Virus record (IMG/VR): IMGVR_UViG_3300034631_000059
Length of the DNA: 64,000 bases
Source of the DNA: a virus
Direction: 5' to 3' (one strand)
The notes under the pieces were generated by a model. The model was not told the origin of the DNA. It worked only from the letters and a program-made list of their open reading frames with translations, and made no database searches. The translations under genes were made by a program, and so were the position numbers. This document shows positions 3,617 through 57,572 of the stretch, piece after piece; within the stretch, counting starts at the first letter, position 1; every line of letters begins with the position of its first letter.

Positions 3617-4522
3617 ATGACCAGCCTCCGGAAGCGCCTGATCGACGTCGAGATCACGCTGAACCCGGTGACCGACAACACCACCGGCGCCGTGACCCGC
3701 CCCACCTTCAGTCGCAGCGGCAAGGACACGCTGCTCCTCCAGGGCTACCGCTGCCAGGCGGTGATCCGGAAGGAGGGCTACATCTCGCAGAACCCGCTCT
3801 CCCTGCGGATCTACGGCCTCTCGCTGGACCTGATGAACGAGATCTCGACCCTGGGGCGGCTCCCGCTCGCCGGGCGGAACAACACCATCACAGTGAGCGC
3901 CGGGGACGAGATCGACGGCGTGGCGGTGGTCTACAAGGGCACCATCGCCAAGGCCTGGGCGAACTTCCAGGCCATGCCGGACGTCTTCTTTCAGATTGAG
4001 TCCTACACCGGGCTCTACGCCGCCCTGGCCCCCACGGATGCGACTTCCTTCGTGGGCGCGGTGGACGTGGGGACGGTCATCAGCGGGATCGCGAACCGGA
4101 TGGGCCGGAGCTTCCGGAACCATGGAGTTCAAACCAAACTGACCGACCCGTATTTCCACGGCACCCTCCTCCAGCAGCTCCAGTCCTGCGCGCAAGCTGC
4201 GGACATCGAGTACGAGGACACCGGGGATTCCATCGTCATCTGGCCGAAGAATGGAATCGTTCCCGGTGTGAAGCCCCTCGTCTCGCCCCAAACGGGCATG
4301 ATCGGCTACCCGTCCTTCACCCATAGCGGCATCGCGGTCAGCACACTCTACAACCCGAACATCGGGCGCGGGCAGCTCATCGAGGTGGAGAGCGACCTGA
4401 CCCCGGCCTGCGGGACGTGGCGTGTCTACACGCTGACCCACGTCCTGGAGAGCGACATTCCCAACGGCGAGTGGACCACCTACCTGGAAGCCGCGGAGCC
4501 GCCATATGCCGCGGTCCGATAA
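3617..4522 (+). CDS. Baseplate hub-like phage tail protein
   Basis: LRIYGLS, ITVSAGD, WANFQAMPD, SPQTGMIGYP, LYNPNI and GTWRV motifs resemble myovirus hub proteins; AGGAGG RBS upstream. Confidence 0.7.
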   Translation: MTSLRKRLIDVEITLNPVTDNTTGAVTRPTFSRSGKDTLLLQGYRCQAVIRKEGYISQNPLSLRIYGLSLDLMNEISTLGRLPLAGRNNTITVSAGDEIDGVAVVYKGTIAKAWANFQAMPDVFFQIESYTGLYAALAPTDATSFVGAVDVGTVISGIANRMGRSFRNHGVQTKLTDPYFHGTLLQQLQSCAQAADIEYEDTGDSIVIWPKNGIVPGVKPLVSPQTGMIGYPSFTHSGIAVSTLYNPNIGRGQLIEVESDLTPACGTWRVYTLTHVLESDIPNGEWTTYLEAAEPPYAAVR

Positions 4523-4866
4523 ACAGCGCGCCTGTGACACGATCCCAAACGAGGCAGCGCTGGGTCCTAGCGAAGCGGCGGCCGCTCCGGGGCCAGTTGT
4601 CGTTCATGGTGTCTTGTTTCTTCCCGACCTAAGGCGACCTCTCGCGCTCGCGTCTGGTGTGGGCTTTCCAAGCAGTCTGCGGATAGTGCCGGGGCTGCCA
4701 CGTTGCCCGACTCTTCTGGGGCAACGCGGTGCCGCCAAGCACGGCATCGGCGCGTAGTTCGCATCGTCGGCCGGCGAAGGTTCTGCTTGACGGCCAAGCG
4801 CTCTTGGCCTACATCACCGCCACGCCACGGTTGCAGAGCATTTACGTTTTAGCAACTGTGGTTTAC

Positions 4867-43742: not shown

Positions 43743-46700
43743 GTGGCGGAACGCAGCGTATTCCAGCAGGGCATCGCGGATCAGGCGGTCGGAGAATACC
43801 TGAGCGCCAACCCCCTGCCCTCCATTGGCGACGACCGCCCGGCCGCGTTCGTTGGTCCGGATCGTGCCCCCGGCACGCGGCTGAACCCTTCAGAGCCCTT
43901 TTCCCGTCCGGCGGAGGAGCGCGGCGGGGCGCCGGGGCGCCTTCGGATCAGCGATGCGCCCGCGCAGCTTCTGCCGCTGTTCGAGGAGGCCAGCGCTCGG
44001 CACGGCGTGCCCATCAACATCATCATGTCCCTGGCCGACCAAGAGAGCGGCTACAACTCCCGCGCCGTGGGCACCCAGACCCAATGGGGCCATGCCAAGG
44101 GCATGATGCAGTACCTCGACAGCACGGCGCGGGGGCTGAACATCAACCCCTACGACCCCGCCCAGGCGATTGACGCGGCGGCCCGTCAGATCCGCGAGCG
44201 CCTGGACCGGGGCTACTCCATGGTGGACGCGGTGCGAGAGCATTTCGCAGGCCCTGACCGCCGCCAGTGGGGCCCCAAGACCGTCCGCTACGGCGAGGAG
44301 GTGCTGGAGCGGGCCGGCGTGCTGGCACAGCGCATCGGGGACCGCTACGCCCCGCGCCCCAACCTGCCTCCCGCCGCATCGGAGCCGCCGGCCCAGACCG
44401 AGGCGCCCGCGGGCGAGGGCGGCATGCTGGGCGATGCCGGGCGCCTGCTGAAGATCGGCGCCAACTCCGCCGCGGCGAATGTCCGCGAGCTGGCGACCCG
44501 CATTCTGCCGCGCGGCGCCGTGGACTTCATCGACAGCATCGACCGCTGGGCGACCGGCAAGAGCAGCGACGAGCTTCTGCGCGCCGACACCAGGGCGATG
44601 GAAGAGGCCATGACGCCCGCCATGCGCGAGGCCATGCGCCGGGACTGGTGGGACAGCGAGCGGGGCACCTTCGGCTCCGCCTGGACCGACCCGCGCGCCT
44701 ATGCGGCTGGCGTGCTGCAATCCCTCCCCGAGATGGCCGTCACCATGGCCCCGGCCATGCGCATGGCGCGCGTGGTCTATGGCGCCCGCGTGGCTGCCGG
44801 CGCCGCACCCGAGGTGGCCGCGCGCGCGGCGGCGCGGGCCGCCGCCCTGACCGGTGCCATCACCGAGGGCGGCATGGGCGGCGCCGCAGCCGCCCGCGAG
44901 GTGCGGGACGCGGTGAACGCGCTTCCCATTGAGACCCTGCGGCAGTCCGATGCCTTCAAGGCCCTGGTCGCGTCCGGGCAGGATGAGGCCACGGCCCGGC
45001 GCGCCCTGGCGGAGGATTCCTCCACCCGCGCGTTCATCACGGCCGGCGTGGCGACCGGCATCTTCGGCGGCATGGGCGACCGGGCGATTGCCAAGCTCAT
45101 CACGGAGGGCGTGGCCGGGGGAATGACCCGGCGGGCGCTGCGCGGCGCGGCGACCAGCGCCGCCGCCGAGGGCCTGTTCGAGGAGCTTCCGCAGAGCGCG
45201 CTTTCCCAGGTGGCGCAGAACGAAGCCATCCGCCGGGCGAACCCGAACCAGTCCCTCACGGAGGGCGTGGCGAACGAGGCGCTGGGCGGGCTGGCCGTGG
45301 GGTCCGTCCAGGGCGCCGGCATGGGCGCCGTTGGTGGTGCTGCGCGGCGCCGCCAGGAAGCGCCTGCAGGCAGCCCCAGCCAGCCCGCACCCTCCCCCGA
45401 CAGCCCGGCGTCTCCCCCAGCCTCTCCAATTCCGGAAGAGGACGCGGCGCCGGGCCGCCAGCCGGAGGCGGTTGCCTCCCCCGCCGCCCCGGCTGGCCCC
45501 CTTCAGCGCGCCATCGCGACCGCGGCGCCCGCCGTGCAGAGCGAGCAGGGCCAGCGCGTGTCCCTGCGCGCGGAGGGCATGGACGACATCGCGGCGGTGG
45601 TGGATCACCACACGCCGGAGGGCGTCATGCTCCGCACCGAGGACGGCGAAAGCCTCCTGGTGACGAACGAGGACGTGGCCTCCGGCGCGGTGGAGATCGT
45701 GCGCGAGGCGACGCCGGCCACCGGCACGCAGCCCGCCCCTGCCGCCCAGCCTGAAGCGCCCCAGCAGGACGCCATCCGCCCGGCCCAGCAGGAGGGCACG
45801 GCCGCCCTGCAAGCGGCCATCGAGCAAGCGCCGCCTCTCCCCAAGAGCGGCGAGGCCCCTGCCCCTGCCCCGGCCCCGAAGGCCTCCGGCGCGCAGCATG
45901 TCTATGACTTCAAGGGAGCCTTCCTGGGCGCGGAGCCCTCCGCCCATCTCCGCGACGGGCTGTGGGCAGCCGTCCAGGCGGGCAGCGACACCCATGCGGG
46001 CATCCGCGAGAACCTGCTGATCGCGGCCAAGACCGCGCGCGAGGGGGGCGGGCTTGAGACCCGGAAGCAGTTCGACGCCTTCCTGAAGGATTGGCACGCC
46101 TCCATCGTCGCGCCGCGCGTGCGGATCGGCACGGCCGAGGGCAACGCCACTGCCATGGAGGTGATCCGGCGTCACGCCGTCGCCCCCAAGGAGCATGCGG
46201 CGCGGGACCGTGAGCAGGCCCGCATGGCCGAGGAGGACGCGCGGCAGGGCGGCGGGCTGGACCTCGCGACGGCCACGGAGTCCGAGCTGCGCGAGCGGCT
46301 GCGGTATCTCGCCCGGCAGGCCCGGCAGCAGGGGTGGACCAAGCCCCTCCTCGCGGCCCGCGCGGAGGTGGAGAAGGCCATCAACCGCCTGGCGACGCAG
46401 CCGGCACAGGAGAAGCAGGGTGCTGGTGATCGAGGGCTTGGGGCTGGTAGCGGCGCAGTGGGTGCTGGGAGCCCGTCCGGCACTGCTGAAGGCCCGGCGG
46501 CTGCGGCTGGTGACGCCCCAGCAGCACGTGGCGATGCTTCGGGCGATGCGGCACGAGGGAAGGCTACCGCCGGAGCTGCACCCCGTGGCGAAGGCGATGT
46601 TTCTGCTTCAGCTCGACGGCCCAAGCCTAAGCCTTCACTGATCGAGGCTGCGCCCGCCGACATGGGCGAGCGGTGGAGTGGGATGAACCACGATGAGCGC

Positions 46701-49700
46701 GCGGACCTCCTGCGCGCCGCGGGTCTCCCCTCCTCCCGGCGGTTCTCATCCTGGGCGGGCCTGAACGACGCGACCCAGAAGAAGCTGGCCGGCGCTGACC
46801 CTGCCGGCACGGTGGCGACGCAGCCCGAGCCCACGCGCGGCAAGAGTGGGTATGAGACGGCCGATCTTCCACGCCTCTACGCCGCCAACATCGACACCCT
46901 GCGGCGACTGCCGGAGGACGCAGGGATTGCGGCCGTCGATCAGGCTGACCAGGCGCTCCGCAACGCCCGGATGTTCTCGGACCTCCTGGCGGAAGAGGGT
47001 GGTCAGCCGGACACCGATGGTGAGCGGGCCCGCACGATGGGCGAGCTGGAGGACCGGCTAAACCGCACCTACAACGCCGCGCAGGACCGCCGTGAAGCGC
47101 AGCCCGGCGAGGAGAAGGTGCCGCGCCGGAAGACGCGGAAGGCCGCTGCCGCTTCCGACGCAGAGCCGAACGGCGGCGCGAAGCTTCAGGCGGCGGCCCG
47201 CGAGGCCTGGGAGCGGTCCAACCTCGCGACGGATCTGGGCGACACGACGCCGATCCGCAACGCCTTCGCGGGGGGCTTCAGCGACGGCGCCGGGGTGCAG
47301 ACCCACATCGCGGAAGGCAAGGGCAAGGCCGCCATCGCCTTCAAGGCGGGCCAGGAAGGCGGGCGGCGCTGGGCTGGGAAGCCGAACCTCTCCCCGACCG
47401 CCGCGAAGCGCGCCAAGGCGCGGCCCGCCGAGGCACCGCCCGCTCAGACCGAGAATCGCATCTTCACGGCCGATGCCGCGGAGAAGGCCCGCGCGCTGCT
47501 GAAGGCCCGGCTGACCCCGAACCATCTCAACTCCGGCGTGGACCCGGAGATCCTGCAGGCGGGCATTACCCTGGCCGGCTACCACATCGAGCGCGGCGCC
47601 CGGACCTTTGCCGCCTATGCCCGCGCGATGGTGGGCGACCTGGGCGACGTGGTTAAGCCTTACCTCAAGAGCTGGTACATGGGGGTGAAGTACGACCCCC
47701 GCGCCGCCGCCTTCGAGGGCATGGACGGGGCGGCTGCGGTGGACGCGGCCGATGTGGATGCCGCCCTGAAGGAGAACGAAGGTGGAGAGGGAGACCGTCT
47801 TGCGGGTGGAGCAGGAGTACCGGCAGCGGAGGGCCGACCCGCGGACGCTGCACAACACGGAGCTGCACCGGCAGATCCTAGCCCGGTGGAAGCAGGACAG
47901 CCCGAAAGCGATGGCGAAGCTGGAAGCGGCGGGGATCGCGTCGAAGCTGGCGTTCGTCCGGCAGGCGAGGATGTGGGACCAGAAGGACGAGCTGGTGGCG
48001 GGCGGGATGCCGGTGACGGACGCCCAGGAGGAGGCCGAGCGGGACAACCTGGTGCTGGACGAGACGGAGGAGACGCCGGAGGCGTAGCGTCCGGCAAGCC
48101 CAGGGCCGACCGAAACGGCGACCTCGCGCGCGCGGCTGGCTTCGTTGAGCGGCCGATGCCCGCCGACATGCCCGAGAAGCGGGTATGGCACCGTGGCGAG
48201 ACGGACAAGATCGCGCAGGACGGTCCTAACACCTTCATCCCCATCGGCGTGGAGCGGCCGGACAACGGCAGCGGTTCCTTCCGCACCATGGCCGCCACCC
48301 TGGCCGCCTTCGCGCGGCGCGACGCGGCGCCGAGCCCGGCCGCCGTCATCGACGCGGTACCGGAGACGCCTCCGGCAGCCCCGAGCCCCGGCAACTACCA
48401 CGTGGCCGATACCATGGCGGGCCGCTCCGGCGGGCCGGTGGCACGTTTCAACCGGAACACCGACGCCATCGAGCTGCTGGCGGCGCTGCGCGAGGCCGGG
48501 CGGCAGGCGACCCGTGAGGAACAGGCGGTCCTCTCCGGCTACACCGGCTGGGGTAGCTTCGGGCAAGAGCTATTCCAGGGCTTCTGGACCAAGCCCATGC
48601 CAAAGGAGGGCTGGGAGGAGCGCGACCGCTGGCTGCGTGACCACCTGGGGCAGGCCGAATGGGAGAGCGCGCAGCGGTCCATCACCAACGCGCACTACAC
48701 CGACCCGCAGACCGTGAAGGCGATGTGGGATGTGGCGCGGCGCCTTGGCTTCCAGGGCGGCCGGGTGTTGGAGCCCAGCATGGGCATCGGCAACTTCTTC
48801 ATGATGATGCCGCAGGACATGGCGGCGCGCTCCCAGCTCTCAGGGATCGAGATGGAGCAGGTGACGGGCAGCATGGCCCAGCACCTTTTCCCCGACGCCA
48901 ACGTCAAGATCATGCCCTACCAGGACAGCCGCACGCCGGATGGCTTCTATGACCTGGTGATCGGCAATTGGCCCTTCGAGAACACGGTGGTTGCCGACCG
49001 CCGATACAACAAGCTTTCGCCCTTCCTCCACGACTTTTTCTTCCTGAAGGCGCTCGACCAGACGCGCCCCGGCGGGCTGGTGATCGGCGTCACCTCCTCC
49101 GGCACCATGGACAAGAAGGGCGTGGGCGTCCGCGCGGCCATGGCAAAGAAGGCCGAGCTGGTGGCGGCTATCCGCCTCCCCTCCGGCGCCTTCCAGGACT
49201 ATGCCGGGACGAAGGTGGTGACGGATATCGTGGTGCTGAAGAAGCGCCCCGAGGAGCTGACCACCCTCCCCCGCGATGCCGAGTGGGTGAACACCGAGGA
49301 GCATCGCGTCGCCAGTGGCGGCAGCTTCGCCCTCAACAGCTACTTCATCCGCAATCCCGGCCAGATCCTGGGGACCCTCGACTTCGGCTCCGGCACGACG
49401 CGCGGGCGGCCGGGCATGATTGTGAATCCGCCGGCCGACCTGGCGGCCGACCTCGCCGCGGCGGTGGGGCGCCTGCCGGAGGGCATCTTCGAGCGCGACC
49501 GGGAGCCGGCGAAGCGGATCAGCTACGTCAGCAACCACACGGCTGACCGGCAGGGCTCCCTCACCATCCAGGATGGCAAGCTCTACGTGGTGCGCGGCGA
49601 GCAGCTCGCGCCGGCCGAGGAGATCACGAAGTACAGCGTCAAGGATGCTGCCGAGACGGCGAGCCGTGACGCGCAGCTTCGGGCCCTGATCGGGATGCGC

Positions 49701-52700
49701 CGTGCTTATGCTGCCCTGATCGACGCGGAGCGGGCTGGCGGTGGCGACAAGGAGCGCGCGGCGCTCCGGGCCTCCTACGACGCCTTCCGAGAGGCCCATG
49801 GCAGCCTGGGGGAGAGCTTCGGTCTTCGCTACCTCGCGAACATCCGCGACCCCTTCTACCCGGCCCTGGCGGCGTTGGAGACGAAGGGCAAGGCGGCGGA
49901 GATCCTTTCCCGCTCCACCATGCGCGGGAAGCCCGCCATGGAGAACCCCGGGATCCAGGACGCCTTCATCCTGGCCCGCAACGAGGCGGTCTCCCCCACC
50001 CTGGCGGATGTGGCCCGCCTGGCGAAGCGCACGCCGGAGGAGGTGAAGGCCGAGCTGATCGCGGCCAATGCCGTCTTCGAGACGCCATCCGGGGACATCA
50101 TCCCGAGCGACATCTACCTGTCCGGCAACGTGCGCCAGAAGCTCCGGGAGGCGGAGGCGGCCGCGGCGGAGGGGCTGGATGGCCTCGCCCGCAACGTGGA
50201 GGCGCTGCGCGCCGTCCAGCCGCCCGACATTCCCTACTTCCAGATCGAGACCCAGCTTGGTGCGACGTGGGTGCCGCCCGCTGTCTATGCCGAGTACGTG
50301 GCCCACATGCTGAACCTGCCGAGCGCGGCCGGCATCGGCGTCACCTTCACCAATGGCCGCTGGACGGTGCGCCTGCCGGAGGGCGCCACCAGCCGCCCCG
50401 AGGCCCTGACCGGCTACGGCACCAGCGAGTACCGCTTCGACCGCCTGGTGAACGCCGCCTTCTCCAACCAGACCGTCACCGTGAAGCGGAAGGACGCGGA
50501 CGGGAAGGAGTTCGTGGACGCCAAGGCCACGGAGGAGGCCAACGCCCGCATTGCCAAGATGCGCGATGATCTGGGCGACTGGCTGTGGTCCGACCCGGAG
50601 CGCCGCGCGGAGCTGGAGCGCGAATACAACGAAGTGCGGAACGCCTATGCGACCCCGCGCTTCGATGGGTCCTTCATGCGCATGGAGGGCATGGCGCTCT
50701 CGGTCGGGCGCGGCCCCTTCGACCTCCGCGCCCACCAGAAGGACGCCATCTGGCGCGCCCTGGTGAACCGCAAGTCCATCAACGCCCACGAGGTGGGCAC
50801 CGGCAAGACCTTCACCATGGGCGGCATTGCCGTGGAGAGCCGGCGCTACGGCATCGCAAAGAAGCCGCTGATCCTGGCTCACAACGCCAATTCGGCCAGC
50901 GTTGCCGCCGAGATCCAGCAGATGTACCCGGCGGCCAAGGTTCTCTACCTGGACAACCTCGCCCCTTCCGTCCTGGAAGTGCGCCTGCGCCAGATTGCGA
51001 ATGATGATTGGGATGCGATCGTGGTGCCGCATTCCGTCATCGACCGCTTTTCCATGCGGGAAGAGACCCTGATGGAGATGGCGCGCGAGGACATCGCCGC
51101 CCTCGAAGAGGAGGCCTATGCCGCCGCGAAGGATGACGGCGAGCGGCTGACCGAGGACATGATGGATGATGAGGAGGCGCTGAAGAAGCTCCGGTCCCCG
51201 ACCGCGAAAGAGCTGGTGAAGGCGCGCAACGCCATCATCTCCACCATCCAGCAGCAGGCGCAGCGTGCCAGCCGGGAGGGCGCGGTGCCCTTCGAAGACC
51301 TGGGCGTGGACATGCTCCTGGTGGACGAGGTTCACGAGTTCAAGAAGCCGTCCATCTCGACCCGGATGCGGATGAAGGGCCTGAACACCCAGACCTCGAA
51401 CCGCTCCATCGCCTTGCAATTCCTCGCCCGCTACGTGCGGAGCCAGAACAACGGCGCCAACATCCACACCTTCACGGGCACGCCGGTCACGAACACCTTG
51501 ACCGAGGTATTCCACCAGATGCGCTACGTGATGGAAGACGAGATGAAGGCTGCCGGGGTGGACACCTGGGACGGCTGGTTCGGCTCCTTCGCGAAGGAGG
51601 TGCAGGACGTGGAGCTGTCCGCGGCGGGCGAGTACGAGCCCGTCACGCGCCTCGCCGGCTTCATCAACGTCCCCGAGCTGCGCCGAATGATCGGCCAGTA
51701 CATGGACGTGGTGTTCGCGGAGGACATGCCGGAGATGAAGCCGCGGCGCACCGCCAGCGGCAAGACGATGGCGAGTCGCGACCTCACGGAGGCGGAGCGC
51801 GCGGAGCTGCTGAACGGCCGCACCGAGGGCGCCATGGACCGCCCTTACCGCAAGGTGGTCAACGTCACCTCCGACCTCACGCCGGAGCAGCGGGGCATCT
51901 TCGCCCGCCTGCAGGGCTACGCGAAGGCGTGGCGCGCGATGGGACCGATGGCCCGGAAGACGGCCATGCTGGAAGGTGCGCCGGAGAGCCCGATCATCAC
52001 CGAGGGCATGGCGAACCGCGCGAGCTTCGACGTGCGCATGCTCGATGGCGAGGACACTGCCGGCCAGGAGGGCAAGGGCGGGGACGATCCGGGCAGCAAG
52101 AGCAGCAACGTGGTGGACCGGGCACTGGCCATCTATGCCAGCCATCCCCTCGCCAACCAGGTGATCTTTGCCGAGCAGGGGTTCAGCACCTCCGCGACCC
52201 GCAGCGCCGGCAAGGACGCCGAGGGTAAGAAGCGCACGAAGACGGTGCCGACCTTCAGCACCATTCGCGACATCGTGGAGCGGCTGGTGCAGGGCGGCAT
52301 TCCGCGCGAGCAGATCGCGGTGGTGGACGGGAAGGTATCGAAGGAGAAGCGCAAGCAGATCGCGGAAGACATGAATACCGGGCGGATCCGCGTGGTGCTG
52401 GGGTCCACCGATACCCTGGGGGTGGGCGTCAACATGCAGCGCAACCTGCGCGCTATGCACCACATGGACGCCCCCTACATGCCCGGCGAGCTGGTGCAGC
52501 GGAACGGGCGCGGCGAGCGCCAGGGCAACCAGTGGAACACAGTGATCGAGTACCGCTACATGACCGACCGCCTTGACGGCCGGCGGTGGCAGATCCTCGC
52601 GACGAAGCAGCGGTTCATCAACGCGTTCCTCCGCTCGAACGCCGATACCCGCGTGATCGAGGGCGATGCTGCGGCCGACGAGGAGAACGACATCCTTCAG

Positions 52701-55700
52701 TCCTTCTCCGAGGCGGCGGGCGATCCCCGCGTGCTGATCCGGGAGAAGCTGAAGCGGAACCTGGAAACGCTTCAGCGGCGGGAGCGGCAGCACGGCCTGG
52801 GCGTGGCCGACGCCAGGAGCAAGGTTCGGGTGCTTCAGGGGCGCCTCGCCGCCCAGGAGCGGGACCTTGCCGAGATCGAGGCGCAGAATACCGTCCAGGA
52901 GGTGAACGCGCTGATCGAGGCGCAGCGCGCGGACGGCTTCCGCATGACGCTGGCGGGGGAAGACTACACGAAGCGCACCGAGGCGGACGGGGCGTTCCAG
53001 AACCTCATGGCGACCGGCGGCGTGAAGCTGGGGGACTCCCGGCGCCTGATCGGCAGCTATGCGGACTTCCCCCTGGATGTGGAATGGAAGGCCTCGCAGC
53101 CGAACCCAACCCTGATCCTGAAGGTTGGGTCCGAGGAGTTCGAGGGGCGCAGCGTGCGCTCCCTGGAAGGGCAGCTCCGCGGCTTCCCGGCGGAGGTGCG
53201 CGGCCGGCAGGCCGATCTGGGGGCCACCCGTTCCAGCCTGGAACGCATGGAGGAGGTGGCCCGGTCTCCATTCCAGCGCGCGAAGGAGCTGGACCTCGCG
53301 CGCGGGCGACTGGCCGCCCTTGAGACGGACATCGCGGAGAACCCCGTCCCGCCGCCCGCCTGGCTCCGCGCTGGCGCCCCGGTGGAGAGCGTGGCCTATC
53401 GCAATGGCCAGGAGTTCGTGGTGTCCGGCCACCGCTGGAACAGCGACGGCTACTTCGTCACGAAGGAGGACGGCCGGGGCACCGCGAATATCCCCTACAT
53501 GGAGGTGACGGACGCCCAGGGCGTGCCGCTCTACGAGGAGCGGCCCTTCGAGGCGCCCGTGGTCCAGCAGCAGGCCCAGCGCCCGGCCGTGCAGGCGAGC
53601 ATCCCGGACGCGCCCTCCCCCGTGGCCACCCTGACCGGCGAAGAGATCGGCGGAGCGACCACCCCCGAGCGCCGGAAGGCGGCCGTGCAGTGGATGAACG
53701 CCAACATCCGGGGCCGTCCGATCTTCAGCGCGGCCTTGGGCGCCAGTGTCGTGGTCAATCGCAAGGGCATGACCAAGACGGTCTCAGGCGGCGTCGGAGA
53801 CCGCATCCTGGACGGGGTGCCCGCCATCGAGGCCATCATCCGCGACGGCCGCCTTGTCGAAACCCTCCCGCCGCGCCCCGAGAAGGGCGACACGGCGGCC
53901 GTTGCTTGGCACCGCCTGGAGGGCACGGTCAGCGTCGCCGGGGAGCCGCGCACCTATCGCGTCCTGATCCGCGAAGAAGCCAACGGCAGCTTCCACTACC
54001 GCCTTGAGGCCGACAGGGGGGAAATGGAGACGCCCCGCACCTTGTCCTCGACTGACCAGCAAGGGAAAGCTGGGGAAGAGGCCGGTATGCGGGGCGCCGT
54101 TCTAAACTTGGAGGAGGCGCCCGGTTCCTTCAAGCCCTCTCCGCAGGGCTGGGGCGAGGTGGACGCTGCCGGCTCGCCGGTCATGTCCGAGAAGACCTTC
54201 GCCCTTGTCACCGCGGCCCTGCGCCAGGTGGCCGGGCCGGAGCTGGTCGTGGAGAGGGGCGCGACCCCCCGGAGCGTGGAAGGCCTGGCCTATGCGCATA
54301 TCGTGCGCTTCGCCATGCATGTGGGCGATGACCGGGCTCCGTGGGTGGCCGTCCACGAGGGGCTGCACGCCCTCCGGAACATGGGCCGGATCACCGCGCG
54401 GGAATGGTCCGTGCTGGTGGACGCCGCGAAGCGGGAGGGCTGGGCGCAGCGGTTCAACATCGAGCGCCGCTACCAGGGGCAGAATGCCGCCACCCAGGAG
54501 GAGGAGGCCATTGCCGAGGCCTTCGCGGCCTGGGCCACCAACCGCTTCGAGGCGAAGGGGCCGGTGGCCCGGATCTTCGCCATGGTCCGCACCTTCCTTA
54601 CCCGACTTCGCAACGCCCTTGCACAGCGCGGCTTCCAGACGGCGGAGGACGTGTTCGGCCGCGCCCTTTCCGGGGAGATGGGCGCGCGGCCCCTGGGATC
54701 GGCAGACCGGGACGGGGCGCGGTCCCAGACGGCCGAGCAGCAGAGCGCCTTCCTCGACAGGTACGCGGCGGACCAGTCCGCCCGCCCGGACATGCGGGCG
54801 AGCCGGGAGCCCATCCAGGCACCGGAGCCGGGCAAGGTGCGCGATTTCCTCCGCTCCATGCTGGACAAGGCCGAGCCCCGGATCCTGGCAGCCATCCCTC
54901 TTCGTCCCCTTATGGAGGAGGTGGGGCACTACCTTCCCAGCGCAAAGAGCTTCCTGAAGACGAAGCAGGCGATGGATGCCATGCGGGCGGAGTGGTTCAA
55001 CACCTCCGCCGAGGTGTCCAATCGCTGGCTGAAGTTCCGCAGCGCCGACAAGGCCGGGAATGCGGCGCTCATGGAGATCATGCACGCCGCGACCCTCGCC
55101 GGGGTGGACCCCAGCAAGCCCTTCGTGGCCAGCAGGAATCCTGCCCTGGACGCCGACCGCCGACCGGAGTGGGACCGCCTGCGGAAGCGGTTCGAGGCGC
55201 TTCCGGAGGAGGGCCGCGCCCTCTTCCAGGTGGTGCGAGACACCTATTCGGAGCTGGCCGACGCGTTCGACGCCGCGCTGCTGAACAGCGTGGACAAGAG
55301 CGTGCGGGTGCGCGAGCTGCAGGCGGAGCGGCAGCACAAGCGCGAGCTGAAGCGGATCGACGCCTCCCCCACCATGACGGAGGAGCAGAAGGAGGCCGCG
55401 CGCGGCGCCGCCGAGCGCACACTGAAGGGGGTGCGGACGCGGGTTCGGTTGAACCGCGGCGCCCGCATGTACCAGCTCCGCGCGCAGTTCGAGAGCAACC
55501 GGGTTCAGGGGCCCTATTTCCCGCTGGCCCGCTTCGGGGACTACTACGTCACGGCGCGCAACACCTCCGGCGAGGTGGTCAGTTTCAGCCGCTTCGAGAA
55601 CAGCGCCGACCAGCGCCGGTTCGCCCGCCAGATGGAGAAGGCCGGGCACCTGGTGGAGATGGACCGCATCGCCAATGACAAGGCGAATGGCCTGCGTGGC

Positions 55701-57572
55701 GCGGTGGACCCCACCTTCGTCGCTGAGGTGGAGAGCATCCTGGAAGGCGCCAACGCCCCGTCCGACCTCATGGACGAAATCTGGCAGCGGTTCCTTCAGC
55801 GGATGCCGGACCTGTCCATCCGGACCAGCAAGATCCACCGCAAGGGCACGGCCGGCTTCACCGCCGACGCCATCCGGGCCTTCGGCTTCCATATGTTCCA
55901 TGGGAGCCACCAGCTCGCGCGTCTGAACTATGCCGCCGATCTGAGCAACAATGTGGACGACATGGCGGAGGAGGCGCGGGACAGCGGCCGGGTAAACACC
56001 GCGACGGCCGTGGTGAACGAGGCGCGCAACCGCCTTGCCTTCATCATGAACCCGACCGGCGGCAGCCTCGCCCAGGGCATCTCCACGGCAGGCTTCCTCT
56101 ACCACCTGTCCGCAAGCCCGGCGGCGGCAGCCATCAACCTCACCCAGACCACGATGGGCGGCATTCCCATCCTGGCCGCCTATGAGGGGACGTGGAGCAA
56201 GGGCTTCACCTCCGCCGCCGCGCAGCTCACCCGCGCGATGAAGGATCTGATGGCCGGCTATGGGAAGATCGGCCAGGCCCCCAACCTCACCGACGATGAG
56301 CGGGACATGGTGAAGACCATGTACGAGATTGGGCTGGCCGACCGGACCCAGACCCACGACCTGGCCGGCGTGGGCGAGGTGGGCGTTCGCTACAACGCCA
56401 CCCGGCAGAAGGTGGTGAACGCCCTGTCCTTCGCCTTCCACCATGCCGAGCGGGTGAACCGCGAGATCACCGCCCTGGCGGCCTACCGCATGGCCCGCAA
56501 CAAGGGGCTGGCGCATGCGGAGGCTATTGACGCGGCGAACAGCCTGACGTGGAAGATCCACTTCGATTATCAGAACACCTCCCGCCCCCGGATCATGCAG
56601 AACGATGCGGCCAAGGTGCTGCTGATGTTCCGCAACTTCACCGTGAACATGCTCTACCGCCTGTTCCGGGACATGAGCGTGGCGGTGCAGGGCGAGACGC
56701 CGGAGCTGCGGAAGGAGGCCCGCATGCAGCTTCTGGGCACCACGATGATGTTTCTGTCCCATGCCGGCATCAAGGGCGTCTGGGGCTTCAGTCTCGCCAT
56801 GATGCTGGCTGGCCTGTTCATGGGCCCGGCGGAGGATGCGGAGGACGAGCTGAAGAAGTGGATGCAGGCCAACCTGGGCGCCGCCATGACGGCGGTGCTG
56901 ATGGACGGCATCCCCGGCTGGGCGACCGGCACGGCCCTGTCCAACCGCATCGGTATGGGGGACCTGTGGTTCCGCAGCCAGGACCGCGACCTGGAAGGCA
57001 AGGAGGAGTGGTGGGCGCTCATTGGCCAGTTCCTGGGGGCCGGCTTCGGCATTTTGGAGAACATGCGCCGCGGCACGCAGATGGCGATGGACGGCAACGT
57101 GGTGCGTGGGATCGAGACCGCCGCGCCGAAGGCGATCCGCGACATCATGAAGGCGCTTCGCTACGCCATCGAGGGTGCGACCACCGCCAAGGGCGATCCC
57201 CTGCTGGAAAGCGTCCCTACCCAGGACGTGGTGAAGCAGCTTCTGGGCTTCACCCCCGCGCGGGTGGCCGAGGTTCAGGAGCGGAACAACGCTGCCCTGA
57301 ACATGCAGAAGGCCATCACTGAGCGCCGCAGCGACATCATCCGTGACTATGCGGCGGCGTTGCGCGAGGACAACCAGGCCGCGCTGGATCGGGCGCAGAA
57401 CAGGCTTGAGGACTTCAACCGCGACTTCCCCGAGAAGGGCATCTCCGGCGCCGACATCATCGGCTCGAACCGGACGTTCCAGCGGAACCGGGGGCGCGCG
57501 GATGGCGGCATCAACCTGGACCCGAAGCTGAACGAAGCCATCCGGGGACGCCTGCCAGCACGAGCATACTGA
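43743..57572 (+). CDS. Giant DarB-like polyvalent virion protein (4609 aa)
   Basis: SLT lysozyme (DQESGYN...GMMQ), N6-MTase-like (VLEPSMGIGNF, IGNWPF), SF2/SNF2 helicase (AHEVGTGKT, VDEVH, QRNGRGERQGN), zincin-like HEGLH, PLARFG motif. Confidence 0.9.
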   Translation: MAERSVFQQGIADQAVGEYLSANPLPSIGDDRPAAFVGPDRAPGTRLNPSEPFSRPAEERGGAPGRLRISDAPAQLLPLFEEASARHGVPINIIMSLADQESGYNSRAVGTQTQWGHAKGMMQYLDSTARGLNINPYDPAQAIDAAARQIRERLDRGYSMVDAVREHFAGPDRRQWGPKTVRYGEEVLERAGVLAQRIGDRYAPRPNLPPAASEPPAQTEAPAGEGGMLGDAGRLLKIGANSAAANVRELATRILPRGAVDFIDSIDRWATGKSSDELLRADTRAMEEAMTPAMREAMRRDWWDSERGTFGSAWTDPRAYAAGVLQSLPEMAVTMAPAMRMARVVYGARVAAGAAPEVAARAAARAAALTGAITEGGMGGAAAAREVRDAVNALPIETLRQSDAFKALVASGQDEATARRALAEDSSTRAFITAGVATGIFGGMGDRAIAKLITEGVAGGMTRRALRGAATSAAAEGLFEELPQSALSQVAQNEAIRRANPNQSLTEGVANEALGGLAVGSVQGAGMGAVGGAARRRQEAPAGSPSQPAPSPDSPASPPASPIPEEDAAPGRQPEAVASPAAPAGPLQRAIATAAPAVQSEQGQRVSLRAEGMDDIAAVVDHHTPEGVMLRTEDGESLLVTNEDVASGAVEIVREATPATGTQPAPAAQPEAPQQDAIRPAQQEGTAALQAAIEQAPPLPKSGEAPAPAPAPKASGAQHVYDFKGAFLGAEPSAHLRDGLWAAVQAGSDTHAGIRENLLIAAKTAREGGGLETRKQFDAFLKDWHASIVAPRVRIGTAEGNATAMEVIRRHAVAPKEHAARDREQARMAEEDARQGGGLDLATATESELRERLRYLARQARQQGWTKPLLAARAEVEKAINRLATQPAQEKQGAGDRGLGAGSGAVGAGSPSGTAEGPAAAAGDAPAARGDASGDAARGKATAGAAPRGEGDVSASARRPKPKPSLIEAAPADMGERWSGMNHDERADLLRAAGLPSSRRFSSWAGLNDATQKKLAGADPAGTVATQPEPTRGKSGYETADLPRLYAANIDTLRRLPEDAGIAAVDQADQALRNARMFSDLLAEEGGQPDTDGERARTMGELEDRLNRTYNAAQDRREAQPGEEKVPRRKTRKAAAASDAEPNGGAKLQAAAREAWERSNLATDLGDTTPIRNAFAGGFSDGAGVQTHIAEGKGKAAIAFKAGQEGGRRWAGKPNLSPTAAKRAKARPAEAPPAQTENRIFTADAAEKARALLKARLTPNHLNSGVDPEILQAGITLAGYHIERGARTFAAYARAMVGDLGDVVKPYLKSWYMGVKYDPRAAAFEGMDGAAAVDAADVDAALKENEGGEGDRLAGGAGVPAAEGRPADAAQHGAAPADPSPVEAGQPESDGEAGSGGDRVEAGVRPAGEDVGPEGRAGGGRDAGDGRPGGGRAGQPGAGRDGGDAGGVASGKPRADRNGDLARAAGFVERPMPADMPEKRVWHRGETDKIAQDGPNTFIPIGVERPDNGSGSFRTMAATLAAFARRDAAPSPAAVIDAVPETPPAAPSPGNYHVADTMAGRSGGPVARFNRNTDAIELLAALREAGRQATREEQAVLSGYTGWGSFGQELFQGFWTKPMPKEGWEERDRWLRDHLGQAEWESAQRSITNAHYTDPQTVKAMWDVARRLGFQGGRVLEPSMGIGNFFMMMPQDMAARSQLSGIEMEQVTGSMAQHLFPDANVKIMPYQDSRTPDGFYDLVIGNWPFENTVVADRRYNKLSPFLHDFFFLKALDQTRPGGLVIGVTSSGTMDKKGVGVRAAMAKKAELVAAIRLPSGAFQDYAGTKVVTDIVVLKKRPEELTTLPRDAEWVNTEEHRVASGGSFALNSYFIRNPGQILGTLDFGSGTTRGRPGMIVNPPADLAADLAAAVGRLPEGIFERDREPAKRISYVSNHTADRQGSLTIQDGKLYVVRGEQLAPAEEITKYSVKDAAETASRDAQLRALIGMRRAYAALIDAERAGGGDKERAALRASYDAFREAHGSLGESFGLRYLANIRDPFYPALAALETKGKAAEILSRSTMRGKPAMENPGIQDAFILARNEAVSPTLADVARLAKRTPEEVKAELIAANAVFETPSGDIIPSDIYLSGNVRQKLREAEAAAAEGLDGLARNVEALRAVQPPDIPYFQIETQLGATWVPPAVYAEYVAHMLNLPSAAGIGVTFTNGRWTVRLPEGATSRPEALTGYGTSEYRFDRLVNAAFSNQTVTVKRKDADGKEFVDAKATEEANARIAKMRDDLGDWLWSDPERRAELEREYNEVRNAYATPRFDGSFMRMEGMALSVGRGPFDLRAHQKDAIWRALVNRKSINAHEVGTGKTFTMGGIAVESRRYGIAKKPLILAHNANSASVAAEIQQMYPAAKVLYLDNLAPSVLEVRLRQIANDDWDAIVVPHSVIDRFSMREETLMEMAREDIAALEEEAYAAAKDDGERLTEDMMDDEEALKKLRSPTAKELVKARNAIISTIQQQAQRASREGAVPFEDLGVDMLLVDEVHEFKKPSISTRMRMKGLNTQTSNRSIALQFLARYVRSQNNGANIHTFTGTPVTNTLTEVFHQMRYVMEDEMKAAGVDTWDGWFGSFAKEVQDVELSAAGEYEPVTRLAGFINVPELRRMIGQYMDVVFAEDMPEMKPRRTASGKTMASRDLTEAERAELLNGRTEGAMDRPYRKVVNVTSDLTPEQRGIFARLQGYAKAWRAMGPMARKTAMLEGAPESPIITEGMANRASFDVRMLDGEDTAGQEGKGGDDPGSKSSNVVDRALAIYASHPLANQVIFAEQGFSTSATRSAGKDAEGKKRTKTVPTFSTIRDIVERLVQGGIPREQIAVVDGKVSKEKRKQIAEDMNTGRIRVVLGSTDTLGVGVNMQRNLRAMHHMDAPYMPGELVQRNGRGERQGNQWNTVIEYRYMTDRLDGRRWQILATKQRFINAFLRSNADTRVIEGDAAADEENDILQSFSEAAGDPRVLIREKLKRNLETLQRRERQHGLGVADARSKVRVLQGRLAAQERDLAEIEAQNTVQEVNALIEAQRADGFRMTLAGEDYTKRTEADGAFQNLMATGGVKLGDSRRLIGSYADFPLDVEWKASQPNPTLILKVGSEEFEGRSVRSLEGQLRGFPAEVRGRQADLGATRSSLERMEEVARSPFQRAKELDLARGRLAALETDIAENPVPPPAWLRAGAPVESVAYRNGQEFVVSGHRWNSDGYFVTKEDGRGTANIPYMEVTDAQGVPLYEERPFEAPVVQQQAQRPAVQASIPDAPSPVATLTGEEIGGATTPERRKAAVQWMNANIRGRPIFSAALGASVVVNRKGMTKTVSGGVGDRILDGVPAIEAIIRDGRLVETLPPRPEKGDTAAVAWHRLEGTVSVAGEPRTYRVLIREEANGSFHYRLEADRGEMETPRTLSSTDQQGKAGEEAGMRGAVLNLEEAPGSFKPSPQGWGEVDAAGSPVMSEKTFALVTAALRQVAGPELVVERGATPRSVEGLAYAHIVRFAMHVGDDRAPWVAVHEGLHALRNMGRITAREWSVLVDAAKREGWAQRFNIERRYQGQNAATQEEEAIAEAFAAWATNRFEAKGPVARIFAMVRTFLTRLRNALAQRGFQTAEDVFGRALSGEMGARPLGSADRDGARSQTAEQQSAFLDRYAADQSARPDMRASREPIQAPEPGKVRDFLRSMLDKAEPRILAAIPLRPLMEEVGHYLPSAKSFLKTKQAMDAMRAEWFNTSAEVSNRWLKFRSADKAGNAALMEIMHAATLAGVDPSKPFVASRNPALDADRRPEWDRLRKRFEALPEEGRALFQVVRDTYSELADAFDAALLNSVDKSVRVRELQAERQHKRELKRIDASPTMTEEQKEAARGAAERTLKGVRTRVRLNRGARMYQLRAQFESNRVQGPYFPLARFGDYYVTARNTSGEVVSFSRFENSADQRRFARQMEKAGHLVEMDRIANDKANGLRGAVDPTFVAEVESILEGANAPSDLMDEIWQRFLQRMPDLSIRTSKIHRKGTAGFTADAIRAFGFHMFHGSHQLARLNYAADLSNNVDDMAEEARDSGRVNTATAVVNEARNRLAFIMNPTGGSLAQGISTAGFLYHLSASPAAAAINLTQTTMGGIPILAAYEGTWSKGFTSAAAQLTRAMKDLMAGYGKIGQAPNLTDDERDMVKTMYEIGLADRTQTHDLAGVGEVGVRYNATRQKVVNALSFAFHHAERVNREITALAAYRMARNKGLAHAEAIDAANSLTWKIHFDYQNTSRPRIMQNDAAKVLLMFRNFTVNMLYRLFRDMSVAVQGETPELRKEARMQLLGTTMMFLSHAGIKGVWGFSLAMMLAGLFMGPAEDAEDELKKWMQANLGAAMTAVLMDGIPGWATGTALSNRIGMGDLWFRSQDRDLEGKEEWWALIGQFLGAGFGILENMRRGTQMAMDGNVVRGIETAAPKAIRDIMKALRYAIEGATTAKGDPLLESVPTQDVVKQLLGFTPARVAEVQERNNAALNMQKAITERRSDIIRDYAAALREDNQAALDRAQNRLEDFNRDFPEKGISGADIIGSNRTFQRNRGRADGGINLDPKLNEAIRGRLPARAY
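46420..46641 (+). CDS. Putative nested overlapping gene (+1 frame, 73 aa)
   Basis: AGGAG 7 nt before GTG; 61 of 73 codons end in G/C; the giant-protein frame here is a Gly/Ala linker with many T/A-ending codons. Confidence 0.5.
   Translation: MLVIEGLGLVAAQWVLGARPALLKARRLRLVTPQQHVAMLRAMRHEGRLPPELHPVAKAMFLLQLDGPSLSLH
47782..48087 (+). CDS. Putative nested overlapping gene (+1 frame, 101 aa)
   Basis: AAGGAG 7 nt before GTG; 98 of 101 codons end in G/C; globular helical protein over a low-complexity linker of the giant protein. Confidence 0.65.
   Translation: MERETVLRVEQEYRQRRADPRTLHNTELHRQILARWKQDSPKAMAKLEAAGIASKLAFVRQARMWDQKDELVAGGMPVTDAQEEAERDNLVLDETEETPEA

Follow-up and report, generated by a model that had tools for sequence, protein, structure and literature searches.

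A small gene of 101 codons followed by TAG lies at 47782..48087 in the 64,000-nucleotide stretch of DNA analysed here (the window), which comes from IMGVR_UViG_3300034631_000059, a virus or prophage record in IMG/VR with 67% GC. This open reading frame (ORF) is located entirely inside a giant DarB-like gene (43743..57572), on the same plus strand and in the +1 frame relative to it. The giant gene was delimited from the ORF list and its translation and, according to Pfam and PHROG, encodes a polyvalent virion-type protein of 4609 aa. The sequence data make it highly probable that a separately initiated small protein is produced from the late mRNA of the giant gene, whose own frame stays open through the small gene and serves as a flexible linker. 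The small frame is under purifying selection, and both frames are maintained, in different ways.

The first-pass annotation, which was made from the letters of the window, had described a 101-aa ORF with AAGGAG 7 nt upstream of a GTG start codon and 98 of 101 codons ending in G or C, and all of these details match the sequence. The Shine-Dalgarno (SD) motif AAGGAG occupies 47769..47774 on the plus strand and is followed, after the 7-nt spacer, by the GTG at 47782; the three codons ending otherwise are CTA, AAA and GAA. A TGA stop codon in the small frame (47767..47769, plus strand), located 5 codons before the start, shuts this frame to reading from upstream. In a frame plot, the signal of G+C at third codon positions (GC3) moves from the giant to the +1 frame only between approximately 47760 and 48090. 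The AAGGAG is mostly unpaired in the predicted RNA fold, the RNA around the start is not unusually structured (z = −0.86), and a scan of 47200-48400 revealed neither a sigma-70-like promoter nor a terminator. A search for sequencing runs listed no RNA run that contains the stretch. Since the ORF has its own SD motif and start codon, no promoter was found nearby and the start region is not unusually structured, internal initiation is the simplest reading: ribosomes starting at the AAGGAG and GTG on the mRNA of the giant gene would yield the small protein.

The giant frame looks quite different over the same nucleotides. The earlier description of a Gly/Ala/Asp/Arg linker with many A/T-ending codons proved to be accurate: only 41 of the 102 codons in the overlap end in G or C, compared with 89.5% in the rest of the gene, and 32 Gly, 19 Ala, 10 Asp, 10 Pro and 9 Arg are found among the 102 residues. 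These 102 codons, which are the −1-frame reading of the embedded gene, form the first part of a Gly/Ala/Asp/Pro/Arg-rich linker (47781..48389, plus strand, about aa 1347-1549) that is predicted to be disordered from its composition and from a structural model. The predicted local distance difference test (pLDDT) of the linker is 35-46, without secondary structure, up to the end of the model at nt 48242. In the giant frame, this region encodes a linker, predicted to be disordered, that connects the upstream domains with the methylase-helicase module. The distal part of the linker in the window (48088-48389) comprises about 90 giant-frame residues beyond those found in other class A loci (class A being the family of the window gene); its GC3 is normal and it resembles an insertion.

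Conservation and selection in the two frames

A word-index protein search with the product of the embedded ORF gave no matches, because gene callers rarely call the embedded ORF. By tblastn against deposited phages, homologues were found in the Pseudomonas phages vB_PaeM_USP_25 and USP_18 (42% identity, E 3e-17), in which the copies also lie in the +1 frame of a giant coding sequence (CDS) and show the same GC3 switch and a similar linker in the host frame. Alignment-based pattern scans yielded homologues in 20 IMG/VR contigs and in 10 bacterial genomes, including those of Rhodoblastus, Azotobacter, Delftia, Acinetobacter, Comamonas, Sphingobium, Acidovorax and Oceanobacter, the homologues overall being 27-55% identical. 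The sequence of the embedded protein is thus conserved across phages of alpha-, beta- and gammaproteobacteria. It had been suggested in the first-pass annotation that the +1 frame be compared across DarB homologues; this was done, and the frame was conserved and open in many phages and prophages. All the computational checks suggested there supported the gene. The small ORF was found in the +1 frame of a giant ORF (from >1,500 to >4,000 codons) in 31 of 32 loci, one of them from Acinetobacter with 42% GC. The same layout occurs in more than 70 independent assemblies, and none of the 23 matching phage records carries a separate annotation of the embedded gene. An exhaustive profile search of 1.84 billion representatives returned 274 clusters at E ≤ 1e-3, nearly all of 70-200 aa. 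The cluster members that were traced lie on short contigs on which the small ORF had been called; the giant frame is nonetheless open over the entire contig.

A diverged +1 ORF that had been missed by tblastn is present at the same place in Atu_ph08. It is of the type HWKE.LP...DEAWQM.RE.YLLLPPE and was designated class B. Class B was found in 21 deposited records, which represent 12 phages (Atu_ph08, PBC5, POI1126, VvAW1, Itty13, Pavtok, PEp14, LASTA, SJM3, SopranoGao, Stean and Mwe-JY07), and in all 21 the region is annotated as the giant CDS alone, without an entry for the embedded gene. The two classes are homologous, comparison of the class A and class B profiles by hhalign giving a probability of 96% (E 3e-9).

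The start region is conserved as well. An ATG is located 34-41 codons upstream of an invariant Trp in 26 of 27 class A loci, the window having GTG at that position, and an SD-like motif of the AAGGA, GGAG or GAGG type precedes the start by 5-12 nt in nearly all 27. In three loci, the small frame has a stop codon just 2 codons ahead of the ATG, so that a programmed shift out of the giant frame could not be accommodated.

The selection acting on each frame was assessed in several ways. In a resampling analysis of 27 loci, the small protein was held fixed, its codons were redrawn from the usage of the giant gene, and the stops arising in the giant frame were counted. A total of 109 giant-frame stops were expected (1.6-9.2 per locus) and none was observed, loci with 42-56% GC being included. 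Over identical nucleotides, residue identity was 0.49 in the small frame vs 0.34 in the giant frame. Nucleotide divergence by small-frame codon position increased in the order position 2, position 1, position 3; the lowest variability was thus at the second position of the small frame, which corresponds to the third of the giant frame. For close, unsaturated pairs, the ratio of nonsynonymous to synonymous substitution rates (dN/dS, Nei-Gojobori) was 0.15-0.45 in the small frame and an apparent 1.3-4.3 in the giant frame. The giant frame is therefore selected only to stay open, without constraint at the level of residues.

These results bear on two further explanations. Dozens of spurious ORFs of more than 80 aa occur within the giant gene of this 67% GC window (46195-46641 is an example), so that one might suspect, in place of an extra gene, an ORF open by chance or a misassembly with two frameshifts that compensate each other. 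Conservation across phages of alpha-, beta- and gammaproteobacteria, the 274 cluster representatives, purifying selection, a confidently predicted fold and the recurrence of the layout in over 70 assemblies reduce the probability of this to a negligible level. Conversely, the giant ORF itself might be the artefact, standing for an upstream gene, the small gene and a methylase-helicase gene between which frame 0 happens to be open. Long alternative frames are common in high-GC DNA, and GenBank AF448724 splits this region of PBC5 into orf33 and orf23. Ribosomes must, however, read through, as frame 0 is free of stops from the upstream domains to the methylase; none of the stops expected in the 27 loci was seen, the giant frame is open in 79 of 80 loci that were picked by the domain upstream of the overlap, and giant DarB-like proteins of related phages have been detected in virions (PMC9144972). 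We therefore consider this possibility very improbable.

Predicted fold and possible relation to TnpV

AlphaFold2, run with an alignment of 27 homologues, predicts the small protein to be an acidic helical bundle with confidence (pLDDT 89.7, predicted template modelling score 0.80), in agreement with the helical, globular-looking protein read from the translation in the first-pass annotation. A Foldseek search of the PDB with this model gave no match at E ≤ 0.001, and the best hit of a further wide fold search (Z 5.6) was within the noise of helical bundles. The matches in the AlphaFold DB and the ESM Atlas were uncharacterised small helical proteins and several TnpV entries, with template modelling (TM) scores of 0.5-0.66; for the TnpV entries the scores were 0.5-0.6. 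The best BFVD match was an unnamed 1093-aa piece, Q8W6J4_2 (prob 0.98, TM 0.54).

A loose resemblance to TnpV-like small proteins had also been noted earlier. For the window protein this resemblance is weak: searches of Pfam, PHROGs and PDB sequences with it and with all class A members assigned no family, and neither it nor any of the 27 class A members matched Pfam TnpV (PF14198) at E ≤ 1. The resemblance is nevertheless real through the sister class B, 13 of 18 members of which match TnpV below the 27-bit gathering cut-off (best E 3.5e-4). The embedded family appears to be a distant, sub-threshold relative of TnpV. TnpV proteins, which are encoded by Tn4451-type transposons and Firmicute mobile elements, share with it a length of about 100-120 aa, an all-helical structure and a similar layout, in which W-x-x-x-x-P is followed by a helical hairpin and then by a G-x-x-x-x-E-A motif that ends in L-L-x-P-E. 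They differ in setting, the embedded gene being found in a proteobacterial podophage and not in a transposon. An established function for TnpV was not found in the literature.

The DarB-type module and other genes in the same slot

The giant protein contains Pfam domains for an SLT lytic transglycosylase, ResIII and Helicase_C (a superfamily 2, SF2, helicase), LPD3 and LPD39/PLxRFG, and matches PHROG 10089 'DarB-like antirestriction' with E 1e-178. Its assignment as DarB-like agrees with an N6-methylase joined to an SF2 helicase within one large late-gene product. The first segment of the DarB-type module in the giant frame (48390..48581, plus strand) runs from a GNYHV...RFNRN motif to GWGSFGQELFQG; it is the constant downstream neighbour of the embedded gene, and a hidden Markov model (HMM) of it was used in the survey below. 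As both motifs of the methylase N-terminus (GNYHV, 48390; GWGSF, 48546) are downstream of the embedded ORF, the earlier statement that this ORF sits just before the methyltransferase-helicase core holds. The distance from the class A stop codon to the GWGSF motif corresponds to about 42-77 aa, and to 137 aa in one locus (L024).

Directly upstream of the overlap lies a conserved helical domain, GITLAGYHIE...KSWYMGVKYDPR (47529..47750, plus strand), referred to here as the KSWY domain. It is 61-78% identical across 42 loci and predicted to be helical (pLDDT 65-80) in the giant-frame reading. This GITLAGYHIEKGARTF...KSWYMGVKYDPR domain, for which no Pfam family was found, is far better conserved than the rest of the giant protein (47529-47750 in the window; 2501-2722 in L039-L118). 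The modules that follow it differ between giants: some have the DarB-type methylase, some a methylase of another type, marked by a QAYSTP...EPTAGNG motif, and some yet other modules.

A second stretch of the giant gene with low GC3 (0.45) and a Gly/Ala/Asp-rich composition was noticed at 46293-46641. A second nested +1 ORF (46195-46641, 3' part 46420-46641) was considered as a gene there and rejected, its translation being rich in Arg, Pro and Ser and without a homologue in 118 loci (best E 0.62). The stretch looks like a low-complexity Gly/Ala linker with unusual codon choice and not like another embedded gene.

The association of the small gene with the DarB-type module was analysed in 80 IMG/VR loci, which were picked solely by the KSWY domain. 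A coding-like +1 ORF of at least 95 aa directly follows this domain in at least 50 of the 80, including 171-codon ORFs in contigs with 38-40% GC. The HMM of the methylase N-terminus detected the module in 45 loci, and a class A or class B gene was present in 40 of these, in contrast to 0 of the 35 loci without it (Fisher p = 2e-17). The other five HMM-positive loci carry different coding-like +1 ORFs. Among class A loci, the upstream domain varies and the downstream methylase module is constant. The KSWY domain was also considered as the partner of the small protein, a proposal weakened by the fact that most class A loci have other upstream domains.

Because of this strict co-occurrence and of in-frame fusions to domains of the giant protein, we propose a partner role for the small protein: it may serve the adjacent DarB-type module as a dedicated accessory subunit, be it a chaperone, a packaging adaptor or a regulator of activity, a role that we regard as quite possible, if short of probable. 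Alternatively, the small gene might be real and separately translated, yet functionally independent, as a moron or an anti-defence or regulatory gene residing in a permissive linker. Linkers tolerate overprinting, apparently unrelated +1 ORFs (class C and singletons) fill the same slot in other giants, and TnpV-like folds are known elsewhere as free-standing small proteins. An independent gene would, however, hardly be expected beside DarB-type modules only (40 of 40 class A/B genes vs 0 of 35 loci without the module), nor in frame with giant-protein domains. Classes A and B are, moreover, essentially never free-standing, and the copies called alone lie under an open giant frame. In a plasmid collection, class A had no match and class B had a single one, in a 59-kb phage-like Brucella replicon. 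Independence thus seems rather unlikely, though it has to be reckoned with.

Class C comprises +1 ORFs of 130-171 aa in Pseudomonas phage Skulduggery (L038, ~4170-4620) and in L104-L106 (2643-3158). They likewise sit in the slot behind the KSWY domain, but the module that follows is a different one, and no similarity to classes A and B was detectable. As class C persists in contigs with 38-40% GC, it is probably another real hidden gene. The +1 ORFs of five loci with a DarB-type module (L044, 2700-3110; L048/L055, 2700-3050; L059, 2814-3032; L117, 2730-3110) fall outside the three class profiles. They look helical, have a coding-type GC and may be further diverged members of the superfamily.

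In a few cases, the small domain is read in frame with another domain. In the Sinorhizobium phage PBC5 (AF448724; L036/L065, ~3200-3640 of L036), the class B domain continues the frame of the upstream orf33, which then ends; no stop interrupts the methylase frame in this region, and the record differs from Atu_ph08 by a 1-nt indel. Either the giant gene is truly split in this phage, or the Sanger record, which dates from 2002, contains a 1-nt error; the RefSeq and GenBank annotations of the region differ. The protein P0017 on L035 is free-standing and consists of 222 aa, with a KSWY-like and the small domain and no overlapping frame, and in P0071 the small domain is in frame with an upstream giant-protein domain, after which a stop follows. 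In Skermanella aerolata (NZ_AVFK01000106; L023, 5887-6588), the small domain forms the in-frame N-terminus, followed by a KSWY-type domain. The Skermanella gene does not have phage structural genes as neighbours; the opposite strand carries a large primase-like ORF, and the contig ends within the gene.

Such in-frame arrangements raise the question of a +1 trans-frame product. A shift near 47770-47790 with termination at the TAG would generate, beside the full-length giant, an N-terminal fragment of about 1,350 aa carrying the small domain. The order of an upstream domain, the small domain and a stop in PBC5 orf33, P0017 and P0071 would fit such a product, and, as the case of prfB shows, +1 shifting can be promoted by an SD-like element. 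Frameshifting does not, however, need an ATG conserved with an SD-like spacing of 5-12 nt in 26 of 27 loci, and the small-frame stops located 2 codons (three loci) or 5 codons (the window) before the start leave almost no window for a shift. Inspection of the junctions revealed no shared slippery or hungry-codon motif, and neither a stop nor a pause signal is present in the giant frame at this point. The in-frame cases were found on short metagenomic contigs or in the 2002 Sanger record, where indel errors are possible. A trans-frame origin of the small protein consequently appears improbable.

Several points weigh against separate initiation and the partner role. The window gene starts with GTG, whereas 26 of its 27 relatives use ATG. 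Given the Gly/Ala-rich giant peptide, the small frame would often be open by chance (P = 0.26-0.90), so its openness is weak evidence and the case for the small gene rests on sequence conservation. The in-frame fusion variants described above could instead indicate the trans-frame product. Separate translation is deduced from the sequence, and the partner role from co-occurrence and fusions. Finally, the link to TnpV is below threshold.

Relation to known systems and significance

Complete genes embedded in other genes on the same strand are known in phages, e.g. gene B in gene A and gene E in gene D of phiX174. The closest parallel is Rz1, which is embedded in Rz in lambda and, as an embedded class, in Bcep22-like phages, i.e. 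in the same phage group (PMC9144972, PMC6139136). In both systems, the larger gene contains, in its +1 frame, an entire small gene that has its own start; conservation extends to both frames, and cooperation between the two products is assumed. In contrast to Rz/Rz1, the host here is a 13.8-kb polyvalent virion-protein gene, and no membrane or lysis function is implied. A further difference is that it is the embedded frame that has normal codon bias and encodes a folded domain, whereas the host frame is degenerate, which suggests that the host ORF overprinted a resident gene and not the reverse. According to this scenario, a small TnpV-like gene would formerly have stood in front of the methylase-helicase gene and would have been read through in another frame as the latter was fused to upstream polyvalent domains. 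The in-frame homologues, together with the normal codon bias and folded domain of the embedded frame and the degenerate host frame, favour this read-through origin.

A small protein encoded at a DarB gene is also known from phage P1, where the 17-kDa Ulx, encoded next to darB, 'aids DarB localization' (PMC9024508). The embedded gene is likewise located beside, or here within, the gene of a DarB methylase-helicase, and by analogy its product is a plausible functional counterpart of Ulx, although ulx lies downstream of darB without overlap. Homology with Ulx was rejected, hhalign giving probabilities of 0.15% and 0.32% against the two class profiles. The giant gene itself is a textbook example of the polyvalent proteins (Iyer et al. 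2017, PMC5512222), and the embedded gene is always found before the N-terminal region of the LPD36-methylase-SF2 helicase dyad. A search of that article for the terms 'frameshift', 'overlapping' and 'TnpV' gave none, so that out-of-frame genes are apparently not mentioned there, and no publication describing the nested gene was found in the literature.

Bcep22/PBC5-like phages have no DarA homologue (PMC6630229). As a more tentative extension of the partner role, which we consider possible but somewhat doubtful, the embedded protein could be an obligatory and hitherto missing accessory factor of the DarB-type modules in these and related DarA-less phages. Produced in cis from the mRNA of the giant gene, it would serve either to hold the module inactive and soluble in the producing cell or to adapt it for packaging into the capsid and ejection. 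The dual coding would then reflect a gene fusion brought about by overprinting an older gene.

Giant DarB-like genes make up about a fifth of the genome in many podophages, including cultured phages of Agrobacterium, Erwinia, Klebsiella, Pseudomonas and Vibrio, and are annotated as single CDSs. With a conserved second protein hidden in these genes, the annotations of such phages, the databases used for their virion proteomics and the designs for knock-outs are all incomplete; a deletion or insertion in the linker would strike two genes together. The locus is a statistically strong case, from a bacterial virus, of long dual coding with a degenerate host frame, and it is relevant to the question of how neighbouring genes are combined into polyvalent proteins. 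Should the small protein prove to be a partner of the methylase-helicase, it would also provide a handle on how proteins of 400-500 kDa are kept inactive, packaged and ejected.

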